A model generated the notes under the pieces. The model was not told where the DNA came from. It did not search any database and saw nothing but the letters and a program-made list of their open reading frames with translations. Below are positions 1-45,520 of a stretch of DNA of 64,000 nucleotides, in pieces. Every line of letters begins with the position of its first letter. Position 1 is the first letter of the stretch. Source of the DNA: a candidate division WWE3 bacterium RAAC2_WWE3_1 (lineage in GTDB: Bacteria; Patescibacteriota; WWE3; UBA101185; UBA10185). The stretch is from assembly GCA_000503835.1 (NCBI GenBank), contig CP006914.1, positions 785,680-849,679 on the forward strand. Reading direction: 5' to 3'. A program made the translations under genes and the position numbers.

Positions 1-10
1 TGAGGATTAC

Positions 11-2827
11 ATGTATAGCAACAATAATCCTACTCTCGACGCCCTTCTTACAAATTCTTTGGGGACAAAGACACTTTTGGATTTGGTCCGGCGTTCGGAA
101 GCAAAGTTCGTTCTTATATCAACGATTGACGTTTATCAGGGGAGGATGTCTCAGGACGAACTGGCCAAGTATTTCGGTCTTTCCAAACCGGAAGAAAATA
201 AATTCAGCTTGATAGAAGCAAAAAGATTCGCCGAGGCCGTGGTTTGGGAATATTTCAAAAAATACGATCTCGATGTCCGCATAGTCCGCTTGCCTGAAGT
301 TTACGGTCCGCGCATGAGCCTGGACTCAAGTGGCGTGATGGGTGTTTACATAAGGACTTTGATCGAGAACAGAGACATTGAAGTTCAGAACGACGGCGTG
401 GAAAAGGAATACTACCTTTATGTTTCCGATGCTGTCAGCGGCATCCTGAGGTCGATGTTCAACCGGGAAACAAAAGGAAATATTTATTCACTCGTACCGG
501 AATCAGCTATCACACAACTTGAACTTGCCTATCTTTTAAGAAGTGTGGCTGACGGCAACCTTCAGATTAGTTTTAAACAATCCGGATTTTCTATGCCTTT
601 CAGAGGTCCCGCGCCCGAGACGTTTAACCTAAAAGATTTGTCGTGGAAACCACGTATAAACCTGAAATCCGGAGTTGTGGATACATTGAAGTGGTTTGGA
701 TACGCCGTAAATCAGAACGCCTTTAAACCTACCAAATATGTTGAAGAGAGAGCAATCTCAAGGGGTACACAGACCACCACGGTAAGACCGCCCGAACCTC
801 CGAAGGTAAGTTCGATTTATCCGACAAATAGTGCCGACCTGTACACGAAAATGTATCCGGTCAGGAATATTAAGACCCGCAAGCGTTTTAATCCGGCGTC
901 AATATTCAGCAGGCACAAAAATGATGGTGCAGTTAAAAGCCTAACCCCTTCAAAAAAGCTCCCCGGATTTTTAGGGAACTCAAAATTTTATGTAGCCGTT
1001 GCGCTGATCGTTTCGGCGGTGTTGGTGTTTTTGGTCAATCCTGTTTTTAGTTTTTATTCAAATGCCCGTTCAGGAGCAGAGGCAATGCAAAGAGTCGCGG
1101 CTGCCGGTTCCGCACTTGATGTAGACAGTTTGTCGAAGAATGCTATTCTTGCTTCCGACAAATTCGAGGTTGCAAGAAAAAATCTTTCAAATCTCAAGTG
1201 GGTTTTCTCATTTTCGGGCAGATCCCAGGAATACATAAGTTATTTCCGTATGCTTTCTTCCTTACAAAACTTTTCGGATTCGGTGGAGCATCTTTCAAAA
1301 TCGGCCGAACCTTTGGAGGGAATGTGGGAGGTTCTACGTCCCGATACTAAAGATGTGCTGACACGTGAAACAGTTAACACCGCAAAACTTGAAATAGACT
1401 CGGCACAGAAACTTCTCTATATAGCCCAGGCCGATTTTAACGGGGTGGACAAAGTGCACATCCCCGAAAAATATAGGGGTTACGTATCGGATTACGGAAA
1501 ATATATAAGTACTCTCCAGCAAAATCTTGATCTGACAACTAAAATTATCGGAGAAGCCGCCGCCGTTCTGGGTGTCGACAAGGAAACCACGTATATTGTA
1601 TGGTTTCAAAATTCGAACGAGATAAGACCGACAGGTGGTTTCATAGGTTCATACGGGCTCTTAACTTTTGATAAGGGCAAGCTGAAAGACCTAAAGATTG
1701 ATGACATATACAACCCGGATGGCCAGATTCTGCTGAGGGAGATAAAGACAGTCCCGCCGGAGGTAATTTCCAAGTACCTGACCGAGGATAGACTTTACCT
1801 TAGGAATTCAAACTGGGATCCTGACTTTCCGACGGCAGCCGGCGTATTCAACGATTTGTTTTACAAAATAGACGGTCAGCGCGTTGACGGATATATTGCT
1901 GTAGATCTTAAATTTGTCGAGGGAATATTAAAAGCTACGGGTCCGGTGTTCCTGGCTGCTTACAACGAAGAGATTAACGCTGAAAACCTTTATGAGAGAA
2001 CGCAGTTTCACAGTGACTTCAATTACGTTCCCGGTTCCGATCAAAAAAGGTCTTTTCTAACTGTATTGGGAAGCAAACTGCTCGAAAAAATGTTCTCGCT
2101 CCCAAAAGATAAACTGCCTAATTTACTTGCGGAGACTCAAAGATCTCTCGATGAGAAACATTTGTTAATAAACTTATCGAACGGTGCGTTAAACGATGTA
2201 TTAAGAGAAAAAAATTGGAACGGGCAGGTTGTCCCCGTTGAAACCGATTATCTCTATGTTGTCAATTCCAACCTGGGCGGAACAAAAGCAAACTATTTTG
2301 TGAAGAATAACATCGATTATGAAATAAATTCCATGACACGCGACGGAGTGTTGAGAGCTACATTAAAGCTTACCTACAACCACACAGGAGAATCAATGGC
2401 GTGGCCGGGGGGTCCTTATAAGGATCATGTGAGGGTGTTGACTCAAACGGGATCTAAACTTACGGGGGCTGAGTTTATCGACGCCGCCGGAACCACTCTC
2501 GATGTGTTTAAAGATATAAAAGTAGGGGCTCCGAACGGATACGATGTTTTCAGCTATGATCTGATTGTTAACCCCAAGGAAACCGTTTCCCTGGTTTTAA
2601 AGTATGATCTTTCGGAGAGTCTTAATGTAACTAAAGACATGTCCTCTTACGCCTTGTATGTTCAGAAACAACCCGGAACGGACGCCGACCCGTTCAGTTT
2701 TACTTTCAACGCGCCGTTCGGTACAGAAATCATAAAAGCAAGTAAGGGGCTGGACATTTTGAACAATGGTATAGCAAACACATCGGATCTGCGCAGGGAT
2801 ATAAATTACTTTATAGAACTTCGCTGA
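11..2827 (+). CDS. 5' partial (open to the window edge). A degenerate NAD-dependent epimerase/dehydratase-like (SDR) segment is fused to a TM segment and a DUF4012-like extracytoplasmic domain.
   Basis: N-terminal 230 aa show a UXS/GalE-like pattern (RIVRLPEVYGPRM). The catalytic Tyr of YxxxK appears replaced (LIEAKRFAE). A hydrophobic segment follows (FYVAVALIVSAVLVFLV), then the DUF4012 hallmark IRPTGGFIGSYG. The frame is open back to nt 2. Confidence 0.5.
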   Translation: MYSNNNPTLDALLTNSLGTKTLLDLVRRSEAKFVLISTIDVYQGRMSQDELAKYFGLSKPEENKFSLIEAKRFAEAVVWEYFKKYDLDVRIVRLPEVYGPRMSLDSSGVMGVYIRTLIENRDIEVQNDGVEKEYYLYVSDAVSGILRSMFNRETKGNIYSLVPESAITQLELAYLLRSVADGNLQISFKQSGFSMPFRGPAPETFNLKDLSWKPRINLKSGVVDTLKWFGYAVNQNAFKPTKYVEERAISRGTQTTTVRPPEPPKVSSIYPTNSADLYTKMYPVRNIKTRKRFNPASIFSRHKNDGAVKSLTPSKKLPGFLGNSKFYVAVALIVSAVLVFLVNPVFSFYSNARSGAEAMQRVAAAGSALDVDSLSKNAILASDKFEVARKNLSNLKWVFSFSGRSQEYISYFRMLSSLQNFSDSVEHLSKSAEPLEGMWEVLRPDTKDVLTRETVNTAKLEIDSAQKLLYIAQADFNGVDKVHIPEKYRGYVSDYGKYISTLQQNLDLTTKIIGEAAAVLGVDKETTYIVWFQNSNEIRPTGGFIGSYGLLTFDKGKLKDLKIDDIYNPDGQILLREIKTVPPEVISKYLTEDRLYLRNSNWDPDFPTAAGVFNDLFYKIDGQRVDGYIAVDLKFVEGILKATGPVFLAAYNEEINAENLYERTQFHSDFNYVPGSDQKRSFLTVLGSKLLEKMFSLPKDKLPNLLAETQRSLDEKHLLINLSNGALNDVLREKNWNGQVVPVETDYLYVVNSNLGGTKANYFVKNNIDYEINSMTRDGVLRATLKLTYNHTGESMAWPGGPYKDHVRVLTQTGSKLTGAEFIDAAGTTLDVFKDIKVGAPNGYDVFSYDLIVNPKETVSLVLKYDLSESLNVTKDMSSYALYVQKQPGTDADPFSFTFNAPFGTEIIKASKGLDILNNGIANTSDLRRDINYFIELR

Positions 2828-2841
2828 TATAATAAAAACAA

Positions 2842-4524
2842 ATGCCACTAGCAGACATGCCCCAGTCAAATAAGCAGCACGCTGTTCCCCAGAATGTTAT
2901 GAGCGTGGATTTCAAACTTATCGGCGATCTTACGATGAGACAGTTTGCTTATGTTTTTATTGCCGGAATATTAGCTTATCTCTCGTACGTTTTTTTCATA
3001 GGTATTTTCCGCTGGCCCTTGGTATTTCTGATAGCTTTCGCAGGTGTGGGATTTGCTTTTATCCCGGTTCAGGAAAGGGGAATGGACGAGTGGATAGTTA
3101 ATTTTTTCAAGGCAATGTACATGCCCACCCAGCGTATTTGGAAAAAAGAACCTACTATCCCATCGGCATTTATGTACGACGATCTGGCTACCCTGAAACA
3201 GGAACTTATTACACTGGCACCGACATCCAGCCGAAGAAAGCTCGAAGAATACCTGAGGTACCAAACAGCCGAAGAAGAGGTGGACCCGCTTGATATTCCT
3301 GAAAAGGAATATGCTCAAAAGGTCAGGGATGCCTACCCCGCCTATAAGAAAAAGAGTAGTGCGGGAGCAACGGCTTTCTCACGTTCCTCATACGGGGCGG
3401 CGGCAGTTGGTGTTCAACCCGCATCGATAGCAGTTGTGGAAGCTCCGGCGCCTGCCGTCTTGGATGTGGAAACGGGGCAGGAAGAAGGTATTTTAGTGGA
3501 GACCCGGAAAGCCTCATCTACAACGCCCGAGAAACAAGAACTCAAAGAACAGACAGCAACTGTCCTTCAGAAACGCAAAGACGCCGGACTTTTTCACCTT
3601 TTCAGGGCAAAAGAGGCGCAAAAAGCACGGGAAGAGGCCAGGGGCAAGAGAATGCAGGATGTTACAGCCGTTCCCTTACCTCAGGGTGCACTTTCGGGAA
3701 CGGTCTCTTTAAGTCCTATGACGCCGGATATGCATTCAGGCAGGAGATTTATTAACCTGCTTCCGTCCCAGGGTGAGCTTATCCTGCCCATAAGAGGGGA
3801 GAAGGTGCTGCGCACGTCAGAGGAGATCTCGGTGGAGGAGAGTATAAACGATAAGGCGTTGAAACTTCAGTCTTTATTAAAAAAAATAAAGGACGAAGAG
3901 GGGATTAAGTCTCCGAAACCCGTAGCCGCACCCATTACGGTAGTACAAAAGAAAGAGCAGGAAGCCCAGGAAGTTCATGATGAAGCAAAGGATGTTGTAG
4001 GGAAGCTTAAGACACAAAGTGAAGAGCTTACGGACGAGATAATAAGACTTAGAAAGAATATTCAGACCACTTCTTCCCCGGGTGCCGGTTCTGAAACGCA
4101 GACAAGATTGTTGAAGAACCTGGAAAATAAGCAGCAGACGGTTGAAGAAAATTATCGGGTTCTCAGCCGCGGTATTCAAAGTCTAAAGTCTACTCCGTCC
4201 GGAGATACTGCGGGAAGTTCTACTCTAAACCTGGACAATTATCCGACGGACCACTTGGAGCCCAATACTTTACGCGGTGTGGTCAAAGGTAGTGAGGGAA
4301 AGGTGCTGACTGATGTTCTCCTGATAGTGAAGAACGAAAGAGAGGAGCCGGTACGCGCGTTAAAAACTGACAGCCTCGGCAGGTTTGAATTACTTTCAAA
4401 ACTCAGCAACGGTAAATACTCAATAGAAGTAAAACCCTCGGATGAAATGAAATTGTCCTTTGAGAAAATTTCTGTAGAATTAAAAGGTGAGGTAGTTCCT
4501 CCATTTGTGATATCCGGTAAATAA
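2842..4524 (+). CDS. PrgI/VirB3-like T4SS membrane protein with a long coiled-coil extension and a C-terminal carboxypeptidase-regulatory-like beta-sandwich.
   Basis: N-terminal 100 aa match the PrgI pattern (FKLIGDLTMRQFAYVFIAGILAYL, two TM helices). The middle is Lys/Glu/Gln-rich coiled coil. The C-terminus (LRGVVKGSEGKVLTDVLLIVKN...SLGRFEL) resembles a CarbopepD_reg fold. Confidence 0.5.
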   Translation: MPLADMPQSNKQHAVPQNVMSVDFKLIGDLTMRQFAYVFIAGILAYLSYVFFIGIFRWPLVFLIAFAGVGFAFIPVQERGMDEWIVNFFKAMYMPTQRIWKKEPTIPSAFMYDDLATLKQELITLAPTSSRRKLEEYLRYQTAEEEVDPLDIPEKEYAQKVRDAYPAYKKKSSAGATAFSRSSYGAAAVGVQPASIAVVEAPAPAVLDVETGQEEGILVETRKASSTTPEKQELKEQTATVLQKRKDAGLFHLFRAKEAQKAREEARGKRMQDVTAVPLPQGALSGTVSLSPMTPDMHSGRRFINLLPSQGELILPIRGEKVLRTSEEISVEESINDKALKLQSLLKKIKDEEGIKSPKPVAAPITVVQKKEQEAQEVHDEAKDVVGKLKTQSEELTDEIIRLRKNIQTTSSPGAGSETQTRLLKNLENKQQTVEENYRVLSRGIQSLKSTPSGDTAGSSTLNLDNYPTDHLEPNTLRGVVKGSEGKVLTDVLLIVKNEREEPVRALKTDSLGRFELLSKLSNGKYSIEVKPSDEMKLSFEKISVELKGEVVPPFVISGK

Positions 4525-4526
4525 AT

Positions 4527-5228
4527 ATGCCTGCTCAAACAACACCTACAACTCAAGATCATCTGGACATTTTTGATATAAAAGATAATCTCGTCCTTTT
4601 AAAAAATGGAGCTGTCTGTGCTGTTCTTCAAACGACTGCCGTAAATTTCGACCTGCTGTCCGAAATAGAACAGGATGCCATAATTGCGGCCTTTTCAATG
4701 CTTTTGAACTCTATTACCTTCCCGGTTCAGGTGGTCATAAGATCAAGAAGACTGGATATTACAAAATACATCGAGAAGGTGTACAGGGTAGAGACCCGTC
4801 TTACCGATCCGTTACTTAAGCATCAGGCACAGGCCTACAGAAAATTTGTTCAGGACGTTATAAAGAAAAACGATGTTTTGGACAAACGATTTTATGTTGT
4901 CATTCCTACAAGTGTTGCCGAGCTCACACAGCCCGGTTCCGGTCCTTTCGACTGGATGCTGAAGTTAACCGGACAGCATAACAAGAGGGTGTCTTTTAAC
5001 GTAGACAAAGTCCTTAATGATGGAAGAATAGAGCTAGCGCCGAAAGTCGACCACATTATAAAAGAATTTAACAGGCTTGGTATAAAAACCAAACAACTCA
5101 CGACCCAGGATCTTGTAGAGCTGTATTTTGATATTTATAACCCGACGACGATTCACGGGCAAAGAATACGAACAGGCATAGATGATTACACGACGGCGAT
5201 AGTAAACCCCGCCATCATAGAGGAATAA
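4527..5228 (+). CDS. VirB4 N-terminal-domain-like protein (CagE_TrbE_VirB-like), encoded as a separate ORF.
   Basis: Pattern IFDIKDNLVLLKNGAVCAVLQTTAVNFDLLSEIEQDAIIAAFSMLLNSITFPVQVVIRS resembles the N-terminus of Gram-negative VirB4/TrbE. No TM segment. The stop lies 1 nt before the next start. Confidence 0.35.
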   Translation: MPAQTTPTTQDHLDIFDIKDNLVLLKNGAVCAVLQTTAVNFDLLSEIEQDAIIAAFSMLLNSITFPVQVVIRSRRLDITKYIEKVYRVETRLTDPLLKHQAQAYRKFVQDVIKKNDVLDKRFYVVIPTSVAELTQPGSGPFDWMLKLTGQHNKRVSFNVDKVLNDGRIELAPKVDHIIKEFNRLGIKTKQLTTQDLVELYFDIYNPTTIHGQRIRTGIDDYTTAIVNPAIIEE

Positions 5229-5229
5229 T

Positions 5230-7347
5230 ATGGGACTAAATCTTTTTACAATGTTTTCCGACAAACCAAAACCCAGCAAACAACAGCAGGGGAAACCGGG
5301 TGAAAAAACACCGGCGCAGGTATTGGCTGAGGGAATGTTAAATGTCAGAGATATAATCGCGCCGTCGGCAATAGAGGTAGATTTCACATTTCTCCGCATA
5401 GGGAATGTCTACTTCAGAACAATATTCGTTTCAGGCTATCCGAGATTTGTAGGTGCAAACTGGCTGTCGCCCATCATCAACTTTGAGCATACGCTGGATG
5501 TTTCCATGTTTTATTATCCCGTTAAATCCAAAGTTATTTTGGATGACCTAAGAAGAAAAATTACGGAGCTTGAGGCCACGACGATGACCAACGTGGAAAA
5601 AGGAAAAATCGTAGACCCTGTCGTTTCTGCAGCACTTGAAGATGCAAAGGCTCTTCAGGAGCAACTCGTCAAAGGTGTGGAAAAATACTTTCAGTTTTCC
5701 TTCTACATAACAATTTCGGCTGAAACACTCGAAGAGCTTGAATCGGTAACTTCCAAGTTGGAAAGTACGTTAGGCGCCCTACTTCTTATTTCAAAAGTTG
5801 CGTCACTACAAATGGAAGATGCCTTCCAGTCCGCCATCCCCACCGGTTTGGACAAACTTTTAATAACCAGGAACATGGACACGACAAGTCTTGCAACTAC
5901 TTTTCCTTTCACCTCTTCGGATCTGACAATGGAAGAAGGGATCATGTACGGTATTAACAGGCACAACGGATCGCTGGTAATTTTCGACCGTTTCTCACTT
6001 GAAAATGCTAACTCGGTTGTCTTTGCAAAATCAGGTTCAGGTAAATCTTATTTCGTAAAACTTGAGGCCTTGAGATTGTTGGTGTTCGGTGCGGAAGTTA
6101 TGATTATCGATCCTGAAGAGGAGTATAGAACTCTCTGCGAAGCGGTAGGTGGGAATTATATAGACTTTTCGGCTAACTCTACTCATAAAATAAATCCGTT
6201 CGACCTTTCGGGAGTTGCGGTTGAAGGTGAAAACGAACTCGGCCAAAAATTAATTGGTTTAATCACTTTGCTTAAACTCATGCTTGGTGGCTTAACTGCA
6301 TCTGAAGAAGCAATTTTGGACAGAGCCCTAATTGAAACATACAGAATAAAAGGTATTACAACTGACCCCGATACTCAATCAGGTATAGAACCCCCGGTCA
6401 TGGAAGATCTCTATAAAGTTTTGATGGGGGCTTCCGAACCCGAAGCTAAGGGAATGGCCGAAAGACTTGAAAGATTTATTAAAGGGTCGATGACCGGCAT
6501 TTTCGATTCCCAGTCGAACATTAACCTCGACAGTAGAATGACCGTTTTCTCCACAAAGCATTTGGAGGAAGCATTAAGACCAATCGCTTTCTACTTAATT
6601 CTTGATTTCGTTTGGACCAGAATTAGGCGCGACTTGAAAAAAAGAATACTGATAGTGGAAGAAGCCTGGTACCTGATGCAGAATGAAGACAGCGCGAGGT
6701 TTATTTACGGAATTGCAAAGAGAGCCAGAAAATATTATTTGGGTCTGACGACTATCTCTCAGGATGTCGATGACTTTTTATCTTCGGAATACGGAAAGGC
6801 AATTGTTACAAACTCGTCTATTCAAATTTTGTTGAAACAGCACCCTGCAGGTATAGATAAAGTTGCCGAAACCTTTTATCTGTCGGAAGGTGAGAAAAGA
6901 TTGTTACTTGCTGCCGCAGTTGGAGAAGGTTTGTTCTTTGCCGGCGCCAACCACGTTGCAATAAAAGTCATGGCCTCTGAAGCGGAGCATAAACTTATTA
7001 CAACAAATCCGGAAGAACTGCTGAAGCTGAGGGAACAGGGTTTGATAAAACCGCTGGGTTCTAACGCACCGAAAAATACTGTTGCCATTCCGCCGGTGCA
7101 GAAACCTTACGAACCGATGAGGCAGGAGTCTTCGCAGAATACTCAAACTATTACCGACACGGCAACCACGTTGCAAAATCAGGGAGGGGCGAAACCTGAA
7201 GAGAATAAAACGGAGCAGCCTGCACCTCAGAACGAACCTTCCGCCGACGATATTTTGAGGTCGGTTGAGTCGCTTAATAAAGATCAGGGTACAATTAATC
7301 TTGGAAACACCCCATCACAGCCTGATCCTGCAGCTCCTACAGAATAA
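5230..7347 (+). CDS. virB4: VirB4/TraE/PrgJ-like type IV secretion ATPase.
   Basis: Walker A is AKSGSGKSYF and Walker B is RILIVEEAWYLM. The N-terminal RTIFVSGYPRFVGANWLSPII motif is typical of VirB4-family proteins. Length is 705 aa. Confidence 0.75.
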   Translation: MGLNLFTMFSDKPKPSKQQQGKPGEKTPAQVLAEGMLNVRDIIAPSAIEVDFTFLRIGNVYFRTIFVSGYPRFVGANWLSPIINFEHTLDVSMFYYPVKSKVILDDLRRKITELEATTMTNVEKGKIVDPVVSAALEDAKALQEQLVKGVEKYFQFSFYITISAETLEELESVTSKLESTLGALLLISKVASLQMEDAFQSAIPTGLDKLLITRNMDTTSLATTFPFTSSDLTMEEGIMYGINRHNGSLVIFDRFSLENANSVVFAKSGSGKSYFVKLEALRLLVFGAEVMIIDPEEEYRTLCEAVGGNYIDFSANSTHKINPFDLSGVAVEGENELGQKLIGLITLLKLMLGGLTASEEAILDRALIETYRIKGITTDPDTQSGIEPPVMEDLYKVLMGASEPEAKGMAERLERFIKGSMTGIFDSQSNINLDSRMTVFSTKHLEEALRPIAFYLILDFVWTRIRRDLKKRILIVEEAWYLMQNEDSARFIYGIAKRARKYYLGLTTISQDVDDFLSSEYGKAIVTNSSIQILLKQHPAGIDKVAETFYLSEGEKRLLLAAAVGEGLFFAGANHVAIKVMASEAEHKLITTNPEELLKLREQGLIKPLGSNAPKNTVAIPPVQKPYEPMRQESSQNTQTITDTATTLQNQGGAKPEENKTEQPAPQNEPSADDILRSVESLNKDQGTINLGNTPSQPDPAAPTE

Positions 7348-7375
7348 TTTTCAATTTTACAACTTAGGGATTTAC

Positions 7376-8488
7376 TTAAAGCTGAATCGGCATTATTATA
7401 TGCAAAAAATCTTCGGTAACATCGGTTTTAAAGATACATGCAGTACTGTTGGAACTCGCTTCCATATTTATCTTTTCACCCTTAACATTATTCAAAAAAT
7501 CAAGAAGGTATTTAGAACTAAAAGCTATTTCCAACATTTCCCCTTCTGTTTCGGCAGGAATTTCACTTTCATGAGTTCCGGTCTCGTTATTTAAAGAAGA
7601 GATTTTAATTAATCCTTCCGGATCTACGCGTAATTTAATAGTGTTATTTGTTCCCTCTTTTACAAAAACCGTAGTTAATCTCACTGCTTCCAAAAATTCA
7701 CCGGCGTTAAAAACCGCTTTTACTGGGGCAATTGTCGGTATTATTTTTTTGTAGTCCGGGTATTGTCCGTCAATAATTCTGGTTGCTATGGTTGTGTCTT
7801 CGGAAGAGAAAAGCGCGAGATTTTCATTTTCGCTCAGTATCATTTTCAAAGGTGATGTGGAAGATGCAAATACTTTGCTTACTTCCGCTAATGTTTTCGC
7901 GGGAATCAACGCTGTGAATTTCTTCGCGTCCGATTTTCCAACGGAAATGGATTTTTCGGAAAGTCTGAAACCGTCAGTTGCCGCTAAAACCATTTTGCCT
8001 TTCTCATATGTAATAAAGACACCGGTGAATATCGGTCTACTCTCATCCATAGATGAAGCAAATGTGACCATCGATACTGCCTGGGCAAAAACCGTCGGGT
8101 CAAGTTCCAGAGAAGTTTCGTCCTTTGAAATGCTGGGAAGTTCGGGATAATCTTTGGCGTCGGTTCCGTTTAATTTTGATTTTGTGTTGTCGGATTTTAA
8201 ATGAAGTATGTCGTTGTCCATTTTTATTTCAATAGTGGACGGGTGAAGATTGGCCACCAGTTCTTTTAAGACTTTCGCCGGTACGGTTATAGAACCCTCC
8301 TTATCAATGGAGGCGTTGACGTATGTGGTGATGGCTGTCTCGAGGTTGGTGGCGGCTAGTTTAATACGACCGTTGTCTGTAGAAATCAAAACGTTGGATA
8401 GTATAGGCAAAGAGCCTTTTGCAGGAACAGCCCTGGTTATTATTTGAAGACCTTTATTCAAATTTTCCTGGAGGCAAGAGAATTTCAT
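7376..8488 (-). CDS. dnaN: DNA polymerase III beta sliding clamp.
   Basis: MKFSCLQENLNKGLQIITRAV...ILSNVLI, 370 aa, canonical DnaN N-terminus. Confidence 0.9.
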   Translation of the reverse strand: MKFSCLQENLNKGLQIITRAVPAKGSLPILSNVLISTDNGRIKLAATNLETAITTYVNASIDKEGSITVPAKVLKELVANLHPSTIEIKMDNDILHLKSDNTKSKLNGTDAKDYPELPSISKDETSLELDPTVFAQAVSMVTFASSMDESRPIFTGVFITYEKGKMVLAATDGFRLSEKSISVGKSDAKKFTALIPAKTLAEVSKVFASSTSPLKMILSENENLALFSSEDTTIATRIIDGQYPDYKKIIPTIAPVKAVFNAGEFLEAVRLTTVFVKEGTNNTIKLRVDPEGLIKISSLNNETGTHESEIPAETEGEMLEIAFSSKYLLDFLNNVKGEKINMEASSNSTACIFKTDVTEDFLHIIMPIQL

Positions 8489-8490
8489 TT

Positions 8491-8943
8491 TTATCTTTTG
8501 GGTTTCAATGTAACCCTTCGGTCACGTCCTTCTCCGACGCTTTCCGAAACGACGTCATCGTATTCGGCAACAAACATGTGGATTTGTCTTCTTTCCCACG
8601 GGTCCATGGGAGGAAGTTCGACGTCCTTTTGAAAAAAGCGGACTCTGTCGATGTAGCTTTTAGCCATGTTTTGAATCTTTTCAGCGCGTTGGTCTTTGTA
8701 TCCGTTTATATCTATTAACACCGTGACCTGTTCTCCGGCTTGTCTCAAAACAGTCAAATGTAGAATGCTTTGCAAAGCATCCAAAGATTGGCCCTGATGT
8801 CCGATTAGGAAATTCAGGTTATTGCCCTGGATTTTTACTTCAAAGACCCCGTCGTCCTTGCCATTAATTTCATAGTTAGGATTTATTTTCATAAATCCGA
8901 AAATGTTGTCTAAAGTATTTTTTATTACTTCTATAATGTTCAT
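8491..8943 (-). CDS. jag: Jag/KhpB-like RNA-binding protein (KH + R3H), short form.
   Basis: C-terminal R3H motif (RRQIHMFVAEYDDVVSESVGEG). Sits immediately downstream of yidC. Confidence 0.75.
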   Translation of the reverse strand: MNIIEVIKNTLDNIFGFMKINPNYEINGKDDGVFEVKIQGNNLNFLIGHQGQSLDALQSILHLTVLRQAGEQVTVLIDINGYKDQRAEKIQNMAKSYIDRVRFFQKDVELPPMDPWERRQIHMFVAEYDDVVSESVGEGRDRRVTLKPKR

Positions 8944-9728
8944 TTTTTTGCTCCTTTAGCTAAGGCCAATTTCTTGACCCAGGGCTCCAGGCCGCCCCAT
9001 CCACTGGTAAAGTACGTCTGGGCAATCTGGAATAGGGTCGAGACAATTATGTATATCATAACACCTGAGGGCAAGGTCAGACCGAAAACAAAAAACATGA
9101 GGGGCATGACGTACAAGTTTTGTTTTTGCATTGATTGCATCATGTCGTCGGTCTTATCCGGAGTTTTCTTAACGATCTTATCGTTTATTTTGGAGAAGGG
9201 CATCATCATTTTGGTTGCTAAAAACTGGAAGACCACCGCCAATATAGTGATGATGAATATCGGATCCGGTTTTGACAGGTCGAGATAGAGGAATTTGGTG
9301 TTTATGGTTTCATCGGCCTTAAATTGAAATTGCTGAAAATATATATTTTTGTTTAAGTCGTTCAGACTTGTGCCGTTAGTCATCGTTATCACCGATCTGT
9401 AGACGGCAATCATGAAGATAAGTGTGACTATTGTTGTAAGACACCCTGACGCCGGGTTGATCCCGTGCTTTTTCATAAGTTCCATTTGCATAGCAGCCAT
9501 CTTTTTCTTGTCGTAACCATATTTTTCTTTTATTTTTTGGATTTCCGGTTGAATATCACGCTGTTTCTGGCTCATCTTAATAGATGGAAGGGTAACGGGT
9601 ATCATCACGGCCTTAATTATTAGGGTAAAAAGTATAATCGCGGTTCCCAGGCTACCTACAAATGAGTAAATAACAATTAAAATGTTAAATATCGGATTTA
9701 AAATTATATTTTGCCAGATTTCCGCCAT
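8940..9728 (-). CDS. yidC: Membrane protein insertase YidC/Oxa1 (short form).
   Basis: NPIFNILIVIY...AIILFTLIIKAVMIPVTLPSIKMSQKQRDIQPEIQKIKEKY is the conserved YidC core. Confidence 0.85.
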   Translation of the reverse strand: MAEIWQNIILNPIFNILIVIYSFVGSLGTAIILFTLIIKAVMIPVTLPSIKMSQKQRDIQPEIQKIKEKYGYDKKKMAAMQMELMKKHGINPASGCLTTIVTLIFMIAVYRSVITMTNGTSLNDLNKNIYFQQFQFKADETINTKFLYLDLSKPDPIFIITILAVVFQFLATKMMMPFSKINDKIVKKTPDKTDDMMQSMQKQNLYVMPLMFFVFGLTLPSGVMIYIIVSTLFQIAQTYFTSGWGGLEPWVKKLALAKGAKK

Positions 9729-9734
9729 AATCGT

Positions 9735-9950
9735 TTATTTTACAGGATCGTAACCTCCTTTGGAAAACGGATTACATCTTACCAGTCTTTTTACTCCCAG
9801 GATAGTGCCTTTTAAGGCGCCGTACTTTTCCACAGCTTCGTAGGTGTAATCGGCGCAGCTGGGTGTGAATCTACAGGTATTTATACCGAAATTGCCGGGA
9901 CTAAGCGTTTTTTTGTATATTTTTATTAAAGTCAGTATCAATTTCTTCAT
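9735..9950 (-). CDS. yidD: Membrane protein insertion efficiency factor YidD.
   Basis: [33 protein letters not shown] is the YidD signature. Confidence 0.8.
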
Positions 9951-10239
9951 ATGTTTTTCCCGCCGAAGAATGTTTGGGATATATGGAAATCCAGCGGTCT
10001 GCGGGTATCAAAGCCAGGTTTTTCCTTACGGTTTCGCGGAAAAGCCTTTTTATCCTGTTTCTGTCTGTGGCGTTCTTGCTGAATCTGGTGGATACAACAA
10101 AGCCTATTTTCGGCTGTCCTGTGTAGTTTTCGGGTTTTAGGATGTATAAGATGAAGTTGTCGCCCTCGATTTTTTGACCGTATTTCTTGGTTATCTTGTA
10201 TTCGAAGGGTGTGGAGAGACGGTTTTCTTTTTTCAGCAT
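9901..10239 (-). CDS. rnpA: RNase P protein component.
   Basis: [31 protein letters not shown]...NRIKRLFRE is the RnpA pattern. Overlaps the yidD start. Confidence 0.8.
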
Positions 10240-10245
10240 TTAGGA

Positions 10246-10404
10246 TTACTTGCCGTTATACGCTACCGCAAGCCTTTTTCGACCCCTAAGTCTTCTTCTT
10301 TTTAGGACGTTGTTGCCGTTCTTGGTAGAAGTTCTGTTTCTAAAGCCGTGTTTGCGGACTCTTTTAACTTTTTTTGGCTGCCACGTTCGTTTTGTTTTAG
10401 GCAT
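10246..10404 (-). CDS. rpmH: 50S ribosomal protein L34.
   Basis: Hand translation of the reverse strand gives [52 protein letters not shown] (52 aa). It is not in the ORF track because it is under 60 aa. Confidence 0.85.
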
Positions 10405-10485
10405 ATTAATGACCTCGAGAGGGATTATAACTGGATGTTGGCGTTATTTCAAGAAGGTATTCTATTGGATAAATAGACCGATTTT

Positions 10486-10851
10486 TTGTATAGTCTACCA
10501 ATGAACCATATAAAACCCGAGATAACATATGAAGACTTCTCGAAACTTGATATACACGCCGGAACCGTCCTGTCGGCCGAAAGAGTAGAGGGGTCCGAAA
10601 AGCTTATAAAACTACAGGTAGATTTCGGCCCGGAACTCGGTCAAAAACAGATCCTGACCGGATTATTAAAATGGTACAAACCCGAAAGTTTTGTGGGGAT
10701 GCAAACAACCTTTATTGTCAATCTTCCTCCCCGAAAAATGATGGGGCTTATGTCGGAAGGAATGATTCTTGCTCTCGGACTATCCGACGAAGAAAAACCA
10801 ACCCTTCTAAAACCCAAAAGAAAGGTTAAAAACGGAGAAGGCGTACGCTAA
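10486..10851 (+). CDS. tRNA-binding domain protein (CsaA/Myf-like).
   Basis: DFSKLDIHAGTVLSAERVEGSEKLIKLQVDFG is an OB-fold tRNA-binding motif. Confidence 0.65.
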   Translation: MYSLPMNHIKPEITYEDFSKLDIHAGTVLSAERVEGSEKLIKLQVDFGPELGQKQILTGLLKWYKPESFVGMQTTFIVNLPPRKMMGLMSEGMILALGLSDEEKPTLLKPKRKVKNGEGVR

Positions 10852-12054
10852 GTGAGATCCAAAACATACTACATAAAAACATTCGGATGTTACTCTAACA
10901 CGGCCGATTCAGGCACGATGGCCGGAATGCTGGAAGTCCTGGGTTACGAAGCTCTTTCCGTTCCTGAATTTAAAACCGAAAAAGAAACTCTCCAATTTGT
11001 TATGAAGGACGCCGACCTTTTAATCGTAAACTCCTGCTCTGTCCGCCAGAAAAGCGAAGACAAGGTTTACGGCATAGGTAAGGTGGTCAAGGAAATAAAA
11101 GTTCTCACCGGCCACAAGCCGTTTATCATCCTAGCCGGATGCATTGTGGGGAGTGTTACGGGGGAGAGACAGAGATACGATTTTGCTACGTTAAAAAAGA
11201 AAACTCCCTGGGCGGATCTTTACATGAATCCCTCACAAATACATGAATTGCCCTTACTACTTAAAAAAGAAGGATTGTTAGGTGAATGGGCAGCAGGAAA
11301 TAAAGTAATAGAGGGCGCGCAGGACACAGCTAACCACGCTTTTATTAATATTTCACAGGGTTGCGACAATTTTTGTGCGTTCTGTGTTGTTCCCTACGCG
11401 CGGGGAAGGGAAGTGTCCCGCAGTAAAGAGGATATTCTCAAGGATATCGGGCGTTTGGTTAAAAAGGGTGTAACGGAAATAACTTTAAGCGCCCAGAACG
11501 TAAATTCCTGGGGTTTATCGGTTAAAGAAAAGTTTCAAATTAGAACAGGCAGCAACCAGAAACTGCCGTTTGCCTCGCTGTTAAGGGAAATTCACGACAT
11601 TCCGGAGATTAAAAAGATAAGTTTTTTGTCATCAAATCCTTTTGATTTTACAAACGATCTTGTTGAGGCGGTATCTTTGCCCAAAATCGACAATTACATC
11701 CACATAGCGGTACAGTCTGGAAATAACGACGTTCTCCACAGGATGAACCGCCGGCACACCATCGAGGATTTCACCGCCCTAATAAATAAATTAAATAAAG
11801 TCAAAAAAGATATTGAGATCGGAACTGATCTCATTGTTGGGTTTCCGGGCGAAACACGTGAACAATTTATGGACACCGTCGAACTGGTTAAAAAATCAAA
11901 TTTTTCAGTGGCTTTCATAGCTATGTACTCTCCGCGTAAAGGAACGGTTTCGGAAACGACATTCGAAGACGATGTTCCTTCCGTCGAGAAAAAATACAGA
12001 CACGATTTTCTTACCAAGACATGGAAAGCTTCGAAGAAGAAAGAACGTCTATGA
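10852..12054 (+). CDS. miaB: Radical-SAM tRNA methylthiotransferase (MiaB family).
   Basis: N-terminal MTTase domain and a CDNFCAFCVVPYARG radical-SAM cysteine triad. Followed by miaA. GTG start. Confidence 0.7.
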   Translation: MRSKTYYIKTFGCYSNTADSGTMAGMLEVLGYEALSVPEFKTEKETLQFVMKDADLLIVNSCSVRQKSEDKVYGIGKVVKEIKVLTGHKPFIILAGCIVGSVTGERQRYDFATLKKKTPWADLYMNPSQIHELPLLLKKEGLLGEWAAGNKVIEGAQDTANHAFINISQGCDNFCAFCVVPYARGREVSRSKEDILKDIGRLVKKGVTEITLSAQNVNSWGLSVKEKFQIRTGSNQKLPFASLLREIHDIPEIKKISFLSSNPFDFTNDLVEAVSLPKIDNYIHIAVQSGNNDVLHRMNRRHTIEDFTALINKLNKVKKDIEIGTDLIVGFPGETREQFMDTVELVKKSNFSVAFIAMYSPRKGTVSETTFEDDVPSVEKKYRHDFLTKTWKASKKKERL

Positions 12055-12986
12055 AAGTTTTCGTAATAGTAGGTCCAACATCAACCGGCAAAACTTCTCT
12101 ATCCGTTGAATTATGTAAAAAGCTGGGTGGGGAAATAATCTCGGCCGATTCCAGGCAGATTTATAAATACATGGATGTAGGGACAGGCAAACTTCCTATC
12201 GGTAGTTCTGTAAATATTAAAAAGGGGGACGAATTCTGGGAGCTGGACGGGATCAAGGTTTGGGGTTACGACCTGGTAGTTCCCGACCAATACTTTTCAA
12301 GCTATGACTTTGCAAAGTATGCACCGGAGAAGACCGAAGAGATTTTTTCCGGAGGCAAAAACGTGTTTCTTGTTGGCGGCACCGGGTACTACGTGGACAC
12401 GGTGACCGGGAAATTGGTATTAAATAACAATATTGAACCTGATTTTGCCTTACGTACCGAACTTGAAAAAAAGCCTCTCCCGGAATTGCAGACCCTTCTC
12501 ACGTCGTTAAATCTAGAGGCCTTCCAAAAAATAGATAAGAAAAATCCGGTGAGATTAATCCGTGCTATTGAAAAAGAAAAAGGGAAGAAAAAAAATCTTA
12601 CTCCCCTACCCCACCCCGACGCTGAATTTATTTATATCGGACTTTCTGGTCCCCGCGAATTTTTATATTTCAGAGCGGATAAATGGGTCGAAGAAATTTG
12701 GAAAAATAAACAAGTTATTTCGGAAACAGAAAAATTACTGTCTATGAATTTCGGTTCCTTCCCACCTCTCCGCGGACTTGTATATAAAACTGCGGTGTCC
12801 TTTATAAATAAGGAAATTACGGAGGCCGCGGCAATTCAAAGGATAAAATTTGATATTCACGCGTATATAAGGCGACAGCAAACTTGGTTCAAACGTAACC
12901 CGGATATTAAATGGTTTGATGTTTCTGTCGATTCATATACGGAAAACGTGTATAGTTTTATTAAGGAGAACTTAAAAAATGGATAA
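12051..12986 (+). CDS. miaA: tRNA dimethylallyltransferase.
   Basis: MKVFVIVGPTSTGKTSLSVELCKKLGGEIISADSRQIY P-loop. The ORF track starts at 12021; the internal Met at 12051 is the likelier start. Confidence 0.8.
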   Translation: MKVFVIVGPTSTGKTSLSVELCKKLGGEIISADSRQIYKYMDVGTGKLPIGSSVNIKKGDEFWELDGIKVWGYDLVVPDQYFSSYDFAKYAPEKTEEIFSGGKNVFLVGGTGYYVDTVTGKLVLNNNIEPDFALRTELEKKPLPELQTLLTSLNLEAFQKIDKKNPVRLIRAIEKEKGKKKNLTPLPHPDAEFIYIGLSGPREFLYFRADKWVEEIWKNKQVISETEKLLSMNFGSFPPLRGLVYKTAVSFINKEITEAAAIQRIKFDIHAYIRRQQTWFKRNPDIKWFDVSVDSYTENVYSFIKENLKNG

Positions 12987-13968
12987 ACAGGTCGTTATTT
13001 CTTTTAAAACTATTTTATTAACCTTTGCGGTTGTATTGGCAGGTTACGTAATTTATAGACTGGGTTCTGTTATAGGCATCTTCGCCATCGCCACTCTTTT
13101 AGTTATCGCCATGGAGTCGGTGATAAATTATTTTATGAGACTCACGGTCTTTAATAAGCCTTTGAAAAAAGGGGTTGCTGTTTTGATTTCGTATGGGTTG
13201 TTACTACTGGTAATGATTGTAGTAGGGACAGTGGGACTGCCTCCGGTTATTGCCCAGTTCCAGAAAATGATTGTGGGAATTTCGCAGATTGCTCAGGGGC
13301 TCAATCTGGGCGATGATTTCAGCATTCAGCTAAAAGACTTTTTACCCCAGGCCGCCAACGTTTCATCCGAGCTTTTGTCTGTGACCATTTCTGTATTTTC
13401 AAATGCAACTACGATATTCAGCATATTTGTGATTGCAATCTATATGTCTTTAGACTGGAAGAATCTTAAGAAACGCTTCCTATCTCTTTTCCCCGAGCGT
13501 TTAGAAGATGAGGCCGAAGATACTTTTTTGGAAGTAGAAAGAAATGTCGGCCAGTGGTTAAAAGGCCAGCTTCTTTTGATGCTGGTCATCGGCGTGGCAA
13601 GTTTTATCGGTTTATTGTTGCTCGATATTAGGTATCCTTTGGCTTTGGCTATGGTCGCCGGTCTATTGGAAATAGTTCCGATGATAGGACCTGTACTTTC
13701 TGCCGTGGTAGCGGCGATTATTGGATTCTCCGATACCCCCGTAAAAGGTGTGGGAGTCATCGCTTTATTTATAATCATTCAACAGTTGGAAAATAATTTG
13801 CTCGTCCCGAAGATTATGCAGAAAGTGTCGGGGTTCAGCCCTTTGATTATTTTGTTGGCTTTACTTATTGGATCTGAATTTTTCGGTGTGGTAGGAGCAA
13901 TTGTTGCGGTACCGACGACGATGATAATTTCAATAATTCTAAAGAGAGTTTTGGGGCGGTCGGATTAA
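12979..13968 (+). CDS. AI-2E family (PerM/UPF0118) transporter.
   Basis: Eight predicted TM segments; topology and length typical of AI-2E permeases. Confidence 0.65.
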   Translation: MDKQVVISFKTILLTFAVVLAGYVIYRLGSVIGIFAIATLLVIAMESVINYFMRLTVFNKPLKKGVAVLISYGLLLLVMIVVGTVGLPPVIAQFQKMIVGISQIAQGLNLGDDFSIQLKDFLPQAANVSSELLSVTISVFSNATTIFSIFVIAIYMSLDWKNLKKRFLSLFPERLEDEAEDTFLEVERNVGQWLKGQLLLMLVIGVASFIGLLLLDIRYPLALAMVAGLLEIVPMIGPVLSAVVAAIIGFSDTPVKGVGVIALFIIIQQLENNLLVPKIMQKVSGFSPLIILLALLIGSEFFGVVGAIVAVPTTMIISIILKRVLGRSD

Positions 13969-14006
13969 GTCCAGTTAAGTCAGCCAAGCTTTTCAATGGA
14001 TTTTTA

Positions 14007-14774
14007 TCAAAGCTTGTAATTATTGCTAACCAGGGCATCGATAGATTCAAGCAAAAGTTTAAAGTCCTTCATATAATCTACCTCAGAAATTTGGACGGGA
14101 TTTTCCAATAAATAGCAGGTGCCGCCCTCTTTTATAAACTCTTTTGGATAAAACTCAATTTTATTTTTAAACAAGTCCTTTTTTATAGTATCTTCGTAGA
14201 ATTTAAAATCAATGATATACGGCATTTGTGTTATATATTCGTTTTCAGTCGCCCTAAAATCTCTTGGTTCTGCAGCAGCAATGTTATTAAAATCTATGAC
14301 TTTATTGCTTTCAACTTTCCCTATCGAAACACAGGATTCATATCTGTATCTATACCCGGATAAAACAATTGAATTATCTGTGTACGTGTCGCCCATTCTT
14401 TTAAGAAATGAAGATGACTGAGGTGAGTGTCCGCATAGCAAATAGAAAGGCTCCGAGCCAAAATGATCCTTAACTAAATCCAAGGCACCCCTAAAACCCA
14501 ATCCCAACTCTTTTGGAAATTGAACCCATCTGATATTTGAATTGGACTCTTTTAGGTATCTTAATCGAGTTATCTTTTCTTTTGATAAGGTATCTTCGAT
14601 ATCTTTATTTGGAAGAAAAACCACTAAGTCCTTTATACCAGCAAGATTAACGGAATCTAAAACGTATTCTAAAAGTAGCCTGTCCTTGTACAAAATGTGA
14701 GATTTTGTACCCATCCCCAATCTGGTTCCACTACTTCCCGCCATAATCAAGGCTTTATTAACCTTACTAGACAT
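14007..14774 (-). CDS. Sugar-phosphate nucleotidyltransferase family protein.
   Basis: N-terminal MAGSSGTRLG matches the G-x-G-x-R-L NTP-transferase motif. Confidence 0.5.
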   Translation of the reverse strand: MSSKVNKALIMAGSSGTRLGMGTKSHILYKDRLLLEYVLDSVNLAGIKDLVVFLPNKDIEDTLSKEKITRLRYLKESNSNIRWVQFPKELGLGFRGALDLVKDHFGSEPFYLLCGHSPQSSSFLKRMGDTYTDNSIVLSGYRYRYESCVSIGKVESNKVIDFNNIAAAEPRDFRATENEYITQMPYIIDFKFYEDTIKKDLFKNKIEFYPKEFIKEGGTCYLLENPVQISEVDYMKDFKLLLESIDALVSNNYKL

Positions 14775-25799: not shown

Positions 25800-27413
25800 T
25801 TGTATAATAGAGTCATGTTCGGAAACTATCCTGTAAATGATGATTGGGTTTTCTTTTGGCAGGTAAAAGCATTTGCGTCAGGAATCTTTAAAATAAACGC
25901 CGAACTCGATCCGTCATTTGTCGCGCAGGGTTTTTTGGGATTGCTTTGGTCAAAAATATTCGGTTTGGATTATATTTCACTTCAGGTTTTGACTTTTCTA
26001 ATTTCATTAGGAACCGCCTTTTTCGTTTATAGAATTTTATTATTATTGGGTTCACGAAAAATCTATGCGATTGCCGGGGCGCTTACCCTGCTTTTTAATC
26101 CTCTGTTTTTTGTTTCTTCTTTCACTTTTATGACAGACAACTACCTTCTGTTTTTTCTGTCCGCTTCAACCTACTTTTTTGTCCGTTACTTCACAGTGCC
26201 TTCATACAGGAATTTAATAACGGGTTCTTTTTTCGGTATGCTGGCGTCTGCGACCCGCCAGAACGGTATTCTTATTTTTATACCCGCACTTCTGTTGTGC
26301 GCCCTTCCGTTCAATAAAGAAAAATTCAAGAAATTAATAGTGCCTGTGTTTTTCTTTTTCCTTTCCATAGCAATAGCATTATTTTGGCCAAGGTTCGGGG
26401 AGAACAAAAGATTTTTAGAAGTTGCTGATATTGCCGGGCGTCTGCAAAGCCTACTTTATGCTCCCCAATATCTGCTAATATTTTTATCTCCGGTTTTGTT
26501 AGGAATAAGAGGGCAGTTGAAAGGTCTGTGGAGAAAAGTTACCGCCATGCTAATGGCTATTCTCGTTGCCTACTTGCTTTTCACAACAGACCTTTTTCCG
26601 ATGGGCAATGTGGTCTACATCGAAGAACTTTACGCAAAGTCCGACTTCAGATCTAATTTTAGTCTCTTTGATAACATCTTTTTTAAAACGTTTCTCTCCG
26701 TTGTATGGGGTTTTGGTCTTTCCAAGATATTGTTCTATGTGATACCGAAAATTAAAAATATTGCGAAACGCGTCGGTTTGCATAAACAGGAAATATTTCT
26801 GCTACTCTCAGCCGCTTTAAATTATGCGGTCTTATTATTTTCCTCGGACATGTACGATCGCTATCTTCTCCCGGTCTTCTTATTTTTACTGTTATTTTTA
26901 TTCGGGCGGTTGGGCGCGGGTTATTCTCTGGATAAAGTCTCTGTATATTTATCAATCGCTCTTTTCGCGTTTATATCAATTGCTCTTCAGTGGGATTTTT
27001 CGGCGAAGAATAGTTTAATGTGGGAACAGTTAGGGGAACTTAGACAAAAGACGGGGTTGAGTACACAAATAGATCTTAACGACACTTACATAAATCATAT
27101 TACCGTGAGAGAGTCCGGGGATTTTACAGGTTTGGAGCCAAGGCGCGGAAGTTTTGACTCCCTCTGTTTTATTCAGGATTATACGTTGGACAGCACCTAC
27201 CCGTTTTCAAAAAAGGTGGAGAGTCTGGGGCGCGTTCTTTCTTCAAAAACGCTGGAAAACCCCAAACCTGCCGGGGTAAGAAAAAAGACACGCCCACGGG
27301 TCAAAAACAATCTGGACAGTTTGATTATTAACGAAGAATACCCATCCATACTTTATGGTTCGGTTGGGAAAAAGGCGTTTGTCGGAAGTTTTTGCGTGGC
27401 GAAAGACGACTAA
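25800..27413 (+). CDS. GT-C fold membrane glycosyltransferase (ArnT/PMT-like, GT39/GT83-like).
   Basis: About 11 TM segments; an acidic NDDW motif near the N-terminus; a C-terminal soluble domain. Confidence 0.5.
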   Translation: MYNRVMFGNYPVNDDWVFFWQVKAFASGIFKINAELDPSFVAQGFLGLLWSKIFGLDYISLQVLTFLISLGTAFFVYRILLLLGSRKIYAIAGALTLLFNPLFFVSSFTFMTDNYLLFFLSASTYFFVRYFTVPSYRNLITGSFFGMLASATRQNGILIFIPALLLCALPFNKEKFKKLIVPVFFFFLSIAIALFWPRFGENKRFLEVADIAGRLQSLLYAPQYLLIFLSPVLLGIRGQLKGLWRKVTAMLMAILVAYLLFTTDLFPMGNVVYIEELYAKSDFRSNFSLFDNIFFKTFLSVVWGFGLSKILFYVIPKIKNIAKRVGLHKQEIFLLLSAALNYAVLLFSSDMYDRYLLPVFLFLLLFLFGRLGAGYSLDKVSVYLSIALFAFISIALQWDFSAKNSLMWEQLGELRQKTGLSTQIDLNDTYINHITVRESGDFTGLEPRRGSFDSLCFIQDYTLDSTYPFSKKVESLGRVLSSKTLENPKPAGVRKKTRPRVKNNLDSLIINEEYPSILYGSVGKKAFVGSFCVAKDD

Positions 27414-45298: not shown

Positions 45299-45520
45299 AT
45301 GAGTACAAAAACCAAAAAATATCAGATCAACGAAAAAGATATCGACACTGTCTTAAATATCCTTAAGCGTACAGATCCGAAGCATGCCACACCAGAAATG
45401 GCTATCGATATCCTCGAGCATTTGCAAGCTACTTTTCATACCATGAGACATTATGATCCTGAAACTTTAGTTAAACTCTATGAAGAGCTAAAAAAGCAAA
45501 AGCAATTGAGTAGAAATTAA
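45299..45520 (+). CDS. Small hypothetical protein (73 aa), translationally coupled to the M23 gene.
   Basis: TAATG overlap with the next gene. Confidence 0.35.
   Translation: MSTKTKKYQINEKDIDTVLNILKRTDPKHATPEMAIDILEHLQATFHTMRHYDPETLVKLYEELKKQKQLSRN

Follow-up and report, generated by a model that had tools for sequence, protein, structure and literature searches.

The window analysed here is a stretch of 64,000 nucleotides from the candidate division WWE3 bacterium RAAC2_WWE3_1 (contig CP006914.1, positions 785,680 to 849,679 of the forward strand). Close to its start, at 2842-7347 on the forward strand, the map of open reading frames (ORFs) displays three co-directional genes of a type IV secretion system (T4SS), separated by intergenic gaps of 2 and 1 nt. 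They encode a long PrgI/VirB3-like protein, a TrsD/TraC-like protein and the VirB4 ATPase. We regard this triad as the membrane-anchored motor half of the T4SS known from Patescibacteria, split over two loci in this lineage, and assign a probability of roughly 0.8 to this interpretation. The system derives from monoderm MPF-FATA conjugation machinery.

The initial annotation had described positions 2842-8488 as a minimal T4SS module with PrgI-like and VirB4-like genes only. Both of these genes were recognised correctly, but a third T4SS gene (4527-5228) was overlooked, and dnaN, which lies inside those coordinates, is a neighbour and not a part of the module. Nor is the system minimal: the three genes make up half of a larger one, and sister lineages have the other half in one cluster with them. 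Features of the triad are as follows.

2842..4524, forward strand: PrgI/VirB3-like protein, putative membrane anchor, 560 aa (PF12666, structural model, neighbour of virB4)
2941..3072, forward strand: predicted transmembrane (TM) hairpin of the VirB3-like protein, aa 34-77 (hydrophobicity)
4267..4521, forward strand: predicted transthyretin/CnaB-like beta-sandwich of the VirB3-like protein, aa 476-560 (PF13620, Foldseek)
4527..5228, forward strand: TrsD/TraC-like protein, 233 aa, probable free-standing counterpart of the VirB4 N-terminal domain
5230..7347, forward strand: VirB4 ATPase, 705 aa (NF045971, TIGR00929, PF19044, 4AG5)
6025..6048, forward strand: Walker A motif AKSGSGKS, VirB4 aa 266-273 (translation, alignment with 4AG5)
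6646..6669, forward strand: Walker B motif ILIVEEAW, VirB4 aa 473-480 (alignment with 4AG5)

The triad and its proteins

VirB4 matches the CD1110-family VirB4-like ATPases (NF045971) with 382 bits (cutoff 325; protein 32-579 on model 180-735), covers model positions 238-724 of TIGR00929 and scores 101.9 bits with PF19044. The match of its aa 230-591 to the VirB4 C-terminal domain in the Protein Data Bank (PDB; 4AG5) has E=2e-49. The first ~180 positions of full-length VirB4 models are missing from the protein. Identity to WWE3 homologues amounts to 59-95%, and among the best 120 homologues, ranked by sequence search and not by a tree, all named ones belong to WWE3 or Patescibacteria. Walker A is invariant in 14 homologues and aligns with the P-loop of 4AG5. 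Walker B aligns with VLVVDEAW of 4AG5 and has Glu instead of the canonical Asp. A scan of species-representative genomes with the VirB4 alignment gave 80 loci, essentially all of them from WWE3; 69 of the 81 VirB4-like ORFs found there carry EE at this site and 11 carry DE, so the Asp-to-Glu change arose within the class.

The C-terminal part of VirB4, aa ~600-705 (window 7030-7347), is a disordered, low-complexity tail rich in Pro, Gln and Glu. It is not conserved and differs greatly in length; homologues have 623-950 aa.

The small TrsD-like protein reaches 30.3 bits with the TrsD model NF041427, below the cutoff of 200, and is assigned to the TraC-like family PF26593 in precomputed Pfam data. 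It further matches N-terminal parts of VirB4 models, namely positions 19-202 of TIGR00929 and 112-233 of NF045975, so that TrsD-like protein and VirB4 (238-724) cover complementary parts of TIGR00929. An AlphaFold2 model built from a 40-sequence alignment has a predicted local distance difference test (pLDDT) score of 62.5 and a predicted TM-score (pTM) of 0.51. When this model was compared with the PDB, all 14 best matches were TrwK/VirB4 chains of the R388 T4SS; the best one, 8RTB_A, has E=7.8e-4 over ~206 aligned columns, and the next unrelated match has E=0.18. A PDB profile search with the TrsD-like alignment returned chance matches only. The structural matches support, rather than prove, a fold like that of the VirB4 N-terminal domain. 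According to Quinonero-Coronel et al. 2025 (PMC12102498), TrsD is a remote homolog of the VirB4 N-terminus, and no other T4SS component is found more often close to virB4 in Patescibacteria.

The first protein of the triad contains the PrgI domain PF12666 at aa 15-99 (38.1 bits, cutoff 27). Hydrophobic segments are confined to ~aa 34-77, and Kyte-Doolittle values above 1.6 occur only at sliding-window starts aa 34-60. When 59 full-length homologues from WWE3 (428-785 aa) are aligned, they display conserved aa 1-160, a variable, gap-rich linker at aa 161-280, a conserved motif at aa 281-360 with the consensus PITPDMHSGRRF.NLLPS.GELILPIRGE, and conserved aa 476-560. The AlphaFold2 model (overall pLDDT 64.8) contains a confident helical hairpin at 31-73 (helices 31-51 and 57-73, pLDDT ~90), long helices or coiled coils at 326-353, 370-409 and 416-449, and a beta-sandwich with strands at 478-558 (pLDDT 84-91). 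Foldseek matched the sandwich best to carboxypeptidase D 3MN8 (E=4e-5), CnaB2 8BDW and UafA 3IS1. PF13620 (CarboxypepD_reg) gave 23.5 bits at aa 476-531, under its cutoff of 32.3, and is a precomputed match in most homologues. Folds of the transthyretin/CnaB type are commoner outside cells.

Lysines and arginines average 2.0 per homologue in the N-terminal flank of the hairpin, 4.7 in the C-terminal flank and 0.9 in the 4-residue loop, a distribution that favours N-in/C-in topology. Only two TM segments are present, and known systems have VirB3 with its termini in the cytoplasm (PMC12857230); a cytoplasmic location is therefore predicted for the entire tail of ~460 residues.

Canonical VirB3 proteins have 10-15 kDa (PMC12857230). 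With 560 aa the protein is ~5 times that size; the VirB3 domain is present in it, and the canonical small architecture is not. Searching 1.84 billion representative proteins with aa 1-160 yielded 1835 clusters at E<=1e-3. With few exceptions the best 150 have 400-1074 aa and an N-terminal PrgI domain, thus the long form is the norm in this group, and this branch of Patescibacteria seems to have long VirB3 proteins as a rule.

The second locus and its contiguous counterparts

The remaining components were located through relatives. Clustering of all ORFs from the 80 WWE3 loci revealed three extra families upstream of prgI in 12-16 of them. Members of the first are 105-160 aa long, have two hydrophobic helices and occur in 3-5 tandem copies; in one contiguous locus (L070) they score 34.6, 32.7, 28.7 and 34.1 bits with the pilin family PF18895, and some members of such arrays exceed its cutoff of 26.6. 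The second is a ~1100-aa protein on the opposite strand. The third, a ~450-aa polytopic membrane protein, is encoded immediately 5' of prgI. Because prgH (VirB6) sits directly upstream of prgI in pCF10 (PMC12857230), we refer to it as the VirB6 candidate. Six-frame profile searches at E<=1 detected no homologues of the three families in the window or in its 10-kb upstream flank.

In contiguous form the gene order is pilins, large protein, VirB6 candidate, PrgI, TrsD, VirB4, dnaN string and dnaA. This form is present in the 12-16 genome loci and in ~10 metagenome loci. A metagenome scan with the VirB6-candidate alignment gave 47 loci, contiguous or split; L090, L097, L101, L104, L107 and L118 exemplify the former, whereas L117, L120, L122, L123, L126, L128, L129 and L132 contain the same pilin, large-protein and VirB6-candidate families and lack the triad in the 8.7-10 kb of available downstream sequence.

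One VirB6 candidate of split type (P0493) lies on the same JGI contig as the window and thereby links the two loci. It is AHB40629.1 of RAAC2_WWE3_1 (locus tag G0718), 96 locus tags away from VirB4. VirB4 and the TrsD-like protein of the triad are identical with AHB40716.1 (P147_WWE3C00001G0814) and AHB40715.1 (G0813), respectively, of the same genome. The contig, Ga0209211_10000109 (181,307 bp), is 100% identical to window 1-14524, and GCA_003525165.1 is 99.986% identical to the same segment; according to exact-protein look-ups the locus occurs on many groundwater contigs and metagenome-assembled genomes. On Ga0209211_10000109 the VirB6 candidate (84,869-86,209) and prgI (168,579-170,261) are on the same strand, 82.4 kb apart. 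In the second locus, the pilins, the VirB6 candidate and both ~1270-aa proteins are encoded at 78,284-90,037 of this contig; the locus contains the following genes, in this order and followed by smpB (positions on the contig, or on locus L152 where marked).

L152 1383-3284 (-): SpoIID-domain protein, 633 aa, coiled coil
88-90 kb upstream of prgI: four tandem T4SS_pilin genes, 267, 108, 103 and 159 aa (PF18895)
second locus (-): 199-aa protein
L152 6122-9943 (-): 1273-aa protein, one TM segment near residue 887, C-terminal HELGH
84,869-86,209 (+): VirB6 candidate, 446 aa, ~8 TM segments
L152 11357-15169 (-): 1270-aa secreted-looking protein, N-terminal signal-like segment, Cys-rich

With PF18895 one pilin scores 27.1 bits and another 25.4, just below the cutoff; the other two have weak precomputed matches. 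The VirB6 candidate begins with a signal-like N-terminus followed by ~7 further TM segments, and members of its family are in part named TrbL/VirB6 in UniRef, these names being automated. Neither Pfam, NCBIfam nor a PDB profile search assigned the two ~1270-aa proteins to a family. The SpoIID-domain protein beside the pilin array, its domain being of lytic transglycosylase type, is a possible functional stand-in for VirB1. Comparison of split-type pilin/VirB6 loci with the window by blastn and tblastx returned no matches; the window thus contains no segment syntenic with the second locus.

The HELGH of the 1273-aa protein is a zinc-protease-like motif near the C-terminus. The counterpart of this protein in L070 ends with HVHIE instead, a motif like that of M23 peptidases.

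Conservation and gene neighbourhood

Adjacency was counted only in loci with enough sequence present. The TrsD-like gene is adjacent to virB4 in 72/72 assessable loci and the long prgI in 61/62, and the three ORFs are intact in all loci, with synteny invariant across the class. Over the 50 loci carrying all genes, median identity to the window proteins is 76% for VirB4, 69.5% for the TrsD-like protein, 53% for DnaN, 50% for both Jag and YidC, 49% for RnpA and 41% for the long PrgI (N-terminal third, ~60%). Evolution of VirB4 and the TrsD-like protein is thus slower than that of their essential housekeeping neighbours, which fits a core function; conservation stronger than that of DnaN and YidC argues for a core cellular role and against a decaying mobile element. 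The G+C content of the triad region equals that of its surroundings. Neither an integrase nor a repeat boundary was found at the triad, and its flanks are housekeeping genes that vary by lineage. Two neighbours that are not components adjoin it in the window.

1..2827, forward strand: epimerase-DUF4012 fusion, lineage-specific neighbour, 5' end cut by the window start (PF13196, PF01370)
7376..8488, reverse strand: dnaN, convergent neighbour (TIGR00663, 291 bits)

The DUF4012 fusion upstream and dnaN downstream on the opposite strand had both been identified initially, and co-location with the former had been thought notable. The fusion, 1031 aa in full contigs, occurs upstream of the triad in 30/51 assessable loci only; an aminoacyl-tRNA synthetase or the VirB6 candidate takes its position in other lineages. 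Hence the proposed order DUF4012-PrgI-VirB4 recurs in other genomes as regards PrgI and VirB4, with the TrsD-like gene between them, and as regards DUF4012 in part of the lineages only. On this synteny the fusion was rejected as a T4SS component; it is an incidental, lineage-specific neighbour.

The gene dnaN ends 28 bp from virB4 and closes a rpmH-rnpA-yidD-yidC-jag-dnaN string (7376-10404, reverse strand). Its convergent position within 600 bp of virB4 is found in 49/63 assessable loci, and to this extent the initial description of the triad as abutting a dnaN/origin cluster stands. The origin part does not. tblastn found no dnaA in the window, DnaA boxes in it number 21 (15.5 expected) and form no cluster, and the GC skew keeps its sign near dnaN. 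A divergent dnaA adjoins rpmH, ~3.5-4 kb from virB4, in 14 WWE3 loci that are more distant; in the lineage of the window this position is taken by a gene with a tRNA-binding domain, miaB and miaA. Here, 'origin cluster' is a description by gene content only. Promoter-like and terminator-like sites in the window do not exceed shuffled expectation. The best promoter-like site (11/12 matches) lies upstream of rpmH, and no terminator-like site was found in the 28-bp gap between virB4 and dnaN.

Loci devoid of the DUF4012 gene or of dnaN have as neighbours a class II aminoacyl-tRNA synthetase, leucyl-tRNA synthetase, MutS, holA or a sortase. In one WWE3 subclade without downstream dnaN, virB4 is followed in L036 (12652-13365) by a holA-like gene and a sortase gene. 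ORFs of the same size occupy these positions in L035, L044 and L050, where they are identified from size only.

Relation to known systems and function

The WWE3 system is a member of the already described Patescibacteria system. In the survey of 3,035 Patescibacteria genomes by Quinonero-Coronel et al. (PMC12102498), VirB4 forms a monophyletic clade nested in MPF-FATA, TrsD and PrgI/VirB3 adjoin virB4, VirB2-like pilin arrays are present, VirB6 is often undetectable and almost no relaxases were found; dnaN, dnaA, rnpA and rpmH are enriched around virB4, so the dnaN adjacency had been published before. Wang et al. 2023 (PMC10633639) showed homologous T4SS genes to be essential in S. epibionticum and could recognise neither a coupling protein nor a relaxase there. 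Both the surveyed systems and that of S. epibionticum (SEML1_0006-0019) share with ours an MPF-FATA VirB4 with adjoining TrsD and PrgI/VirB3, VirB2-like pilin arrays, the lack of a nearby relaxase, the dnaN/rnpA/rpmH context and vertical inheritance within the class. The system of this WWE3 lineage differs in its division between two loci at a distance of 82 kb, the lack of dnaA near the triad, the VirB3 homologue of 560 aa with coiled coils and transthyretin-like tail, and the EE of Walker B. In the available parts of PMC12102498 and in PMC10633639, PMC11665869 and PMC12857230 we found no mention of a system divided between two loci, as in part of WWE3, of a transthyretin-like domain in a long VirB3 tail, of conservation quantified against DnaN, or of the Walker B Asp-to-Glu change.

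Other systems are more distant. Those of pGO1, pSK41 and pIP501 have the same order of VirB3-like (TrsC/TraC), TrsD/TraD and VirB4 (TrsE/TraE) genes, and a small protein of its own represents the VirB4 N-terminal domain. They are plasmid-borne and lack VirB2 pilins, and a single operon unites their relaxase and coupling protein with VirB1/VirB6/VirB8-like genes, whereas the WWE3 genes are chromosomal core genes accompanied by pilins, and neither a relaxase nor a coupling protein is encoded in the 95 kb examined. In the inner-membrane complex of R388 Trw and Agrobacterium VirB (TrwM/VirB3-TrwK/VirB4; 7O41, 8RTB), a VirB3 TM hairpin is likewise combined with the VirB4 ATPase, and the model of the WWE3 TrsD-like protein superposes on TrwK; these are, however, diderm systems with an outer-membrane core complex, a single-chain VirB4 and a VirB3 of 10-15 kDa without long tail. 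Rickettsiales vir homolog (rvh) is similar as a chromosomal T4SS scattered over several loci of a reduced, host-dependent genome (PMC12102498). It differs in its MPF-T class, diderm envelope, duplicated components and occurrence in intracellular parasites of eukaryotes.

Genes of a conjugative system were searched for over 95 kb, comprising the window, 10 kb upstream of it and the 21-kb second locus. No relaxase, VirD4/TcpA coupling protein or integrase was found there, and the triad is present in every WWE3 locus examined, i.e. not patchily. The 10 kb upstream encode a PEGA/SH3 protein, alaS, groES, groEL, a hypothetical gene, RNase H and a Wzz-like gene, and neither a T4SS gene nor a relaxase; a complete conjugative T4SS with relaxase was looked for in this segment and not found. 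Over the remainder of the window, Pfam matches, both precomputed and newly computed, include no VirB6, VirB8, VirD4, pilin or relaxase family. The initial statement that other recognisable T4SS genes are lacking thus holds for the window and 10 kb upstream, and fails with the pilin/VirB6-candidate locus 82 kb upstream. Since relaxase and coupling protein are missing from the 95 kb and the triad has the status of core genes, the machine probably serves a purpose other than conjugation. A non-conjugative role was also favoured initially and agrees with the literature (PMC10633639, PMC12102498).

We propose that the VirB3-like protein would anchor the ATPase at the membrane via its TM hairpin and that the TrsD-like protein would contribute in trans the N-terminal domain which is built into canonical VirB4. 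Hydrolysis of ATP by a VirB4 hexamer would then power assembly of a VirB2-type pilus and/or passage of macromolecules through the polytopic channel protein. Pilins, channel candidate and two giant envelope proteins would be supplied from the second locus. Most likely the system serves the host-dependent lifestyle, in attachment to host cells or in exchange of macromolecules with the host, as in Saccharibacteria. Its task might be protein export, import of DNA or other macromolecules, or formation of a pilus only; we consider each of these rather doubtful when taken singly. In reviews the function of Patescibacteria T4SS is called 'completely unknown', with effector delivery or DNA import as proposals (PMC11665869, PMC12857230).

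Several points weigh against our interpretation. Cooperation of the two loci is suggested by contiguity in relatives. Pfam, NCBIfam and a PDB profile search gave nothing for the VirB6 candidate, whose label draws only on position, TM topology and automated UniRef names. Since the model of the TrsD-like protein is moderate (pLDDT 62.5) and its TM-score normalised to the query is 0.41, its fold is taken as support only. Glutamate in Walker B may alter the ATPase chemistry. The long VirB3-like tail has no counterpart among solved T4SS structures, and the failure to detect relaxase or coupling protein applies to 95 kb of an 878-kb genome (878,109 bp).

As to the tail, it is conceivable, if improbable, that it forms a built-in platform for substrate recruitment or scaffolding which replaces the missing coupling protein (VirD4) or VirB8. 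This proposal draws on the PITPDMHSGRRF..LLPS.GELILPIRGE motif, the coiled coils and the terminal transthyretin-like domain. If true, this would be a T4SS in which substrate selection is done by VirB3.

A dedicated DNA importer resembling archaeal Ced or H. pylori ComB, which would feed host DNA to a nucleotide-auxotrophic cell, seems slightly less probable still. Such a role is proposed in reviews on the ground that ComEC is dispensable and T4SS essential in S. epibionticum (PMC11665869, PMC12102498), and weak CedB and CedD signals are present. These amount to 35.4 and 28.2 bits, however, far under the cutoffs of 700 and 600, neither T4SS locus contains a gene for DNA binding or processing, nothing in the sequence points to a direction of transport, and Wang et al. 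prefer protein export or another role (PMC10633639). As a sub-hypothesis on the substrate, DNA import is compatible with the two-locus motor interpretation.

We find it quite unlikely that the VirB3-like protein and VirB4, with or without TrsD, act as an autonomous pilus or DNA-uptake motor, as the word 'minimal' would imply. True, no other T4SS family is present in the window or 10 kb upstream, and the triad stands alone among housekeeping genes in several lineages. Against this, the chromosome that carries the triad also encodes, at a distance of 82 kb, four VirB2-like pilins and a polytopic channel candidate, and in sister lineages the pilin and VirB6-candidate genes are joined directly to the triad. 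Autonomy would also demand transport by VirB4 without a channel component, and we know of no way in which VirB4 could move anything across a membrane without one.

That the triad is the decaying remnant of a Gram-positive-type integrated conjugative element which lost its relaxase, coupling protein and channel genes is very improbable: its best curated match is the CD1110 VirB4 family of clostridial conjugative transposons, and TrsD and PrgI are typical of MPF-FATA plasmids and integrated conjugative elements (PMC12102498), but intact ORFs, invariant synteny, conservation above that of DnaN and YidC, unremarkable G+C, housekeeping flanks and the lack of an integrase or repeat boundary all contradict decay.

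The T4SS is among the few machines that nearly all Patescibacteria have kept, and the single species tested cannot do without it. Our results indicate that apparently 'minimal' VirB4 clusters can be artefacts of a limited neighbourhood. Due to the split layout, pilins and VirB6 candidate of the second locus fall outside the neighbourhood of +/-20 coding sequences used in PMC12102498, and surveys near virB4 alone will undercount pilins and channel proteins. The large conserved VirB3 tail, which solved T4SS structures do not explain, is a target for structural or genetic work.

Elsewhere in the window, the segment 39348-46340 was considered as a home of the missing T4SS parts and rejected, as it contains no T4SS genes. 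It has low GC content (0.376-0.388, ~0.42-0.46 elsewhere) and small, mostly unannotated genes, and may be an acquired island. It encodes a protein with HD-type motifs (41312-42301), a nucleotidyltransferase (43700-44515), a PLD-like protein (44774-45271) with a weak PADLOC match to MkoC (36.5 bits), an M23 peptidase (45520-46119) and a helix-turn-helix regulator; PADLOC matches in this segment are weak only. Apart from the first protein (39348-40139), the products are without evident signal peptide or TM segment. Exact-protein look-up of 25800-27413 gave no match. A small leucine-rich-repeat protein of 197 aa is encoded at 28079-28672.

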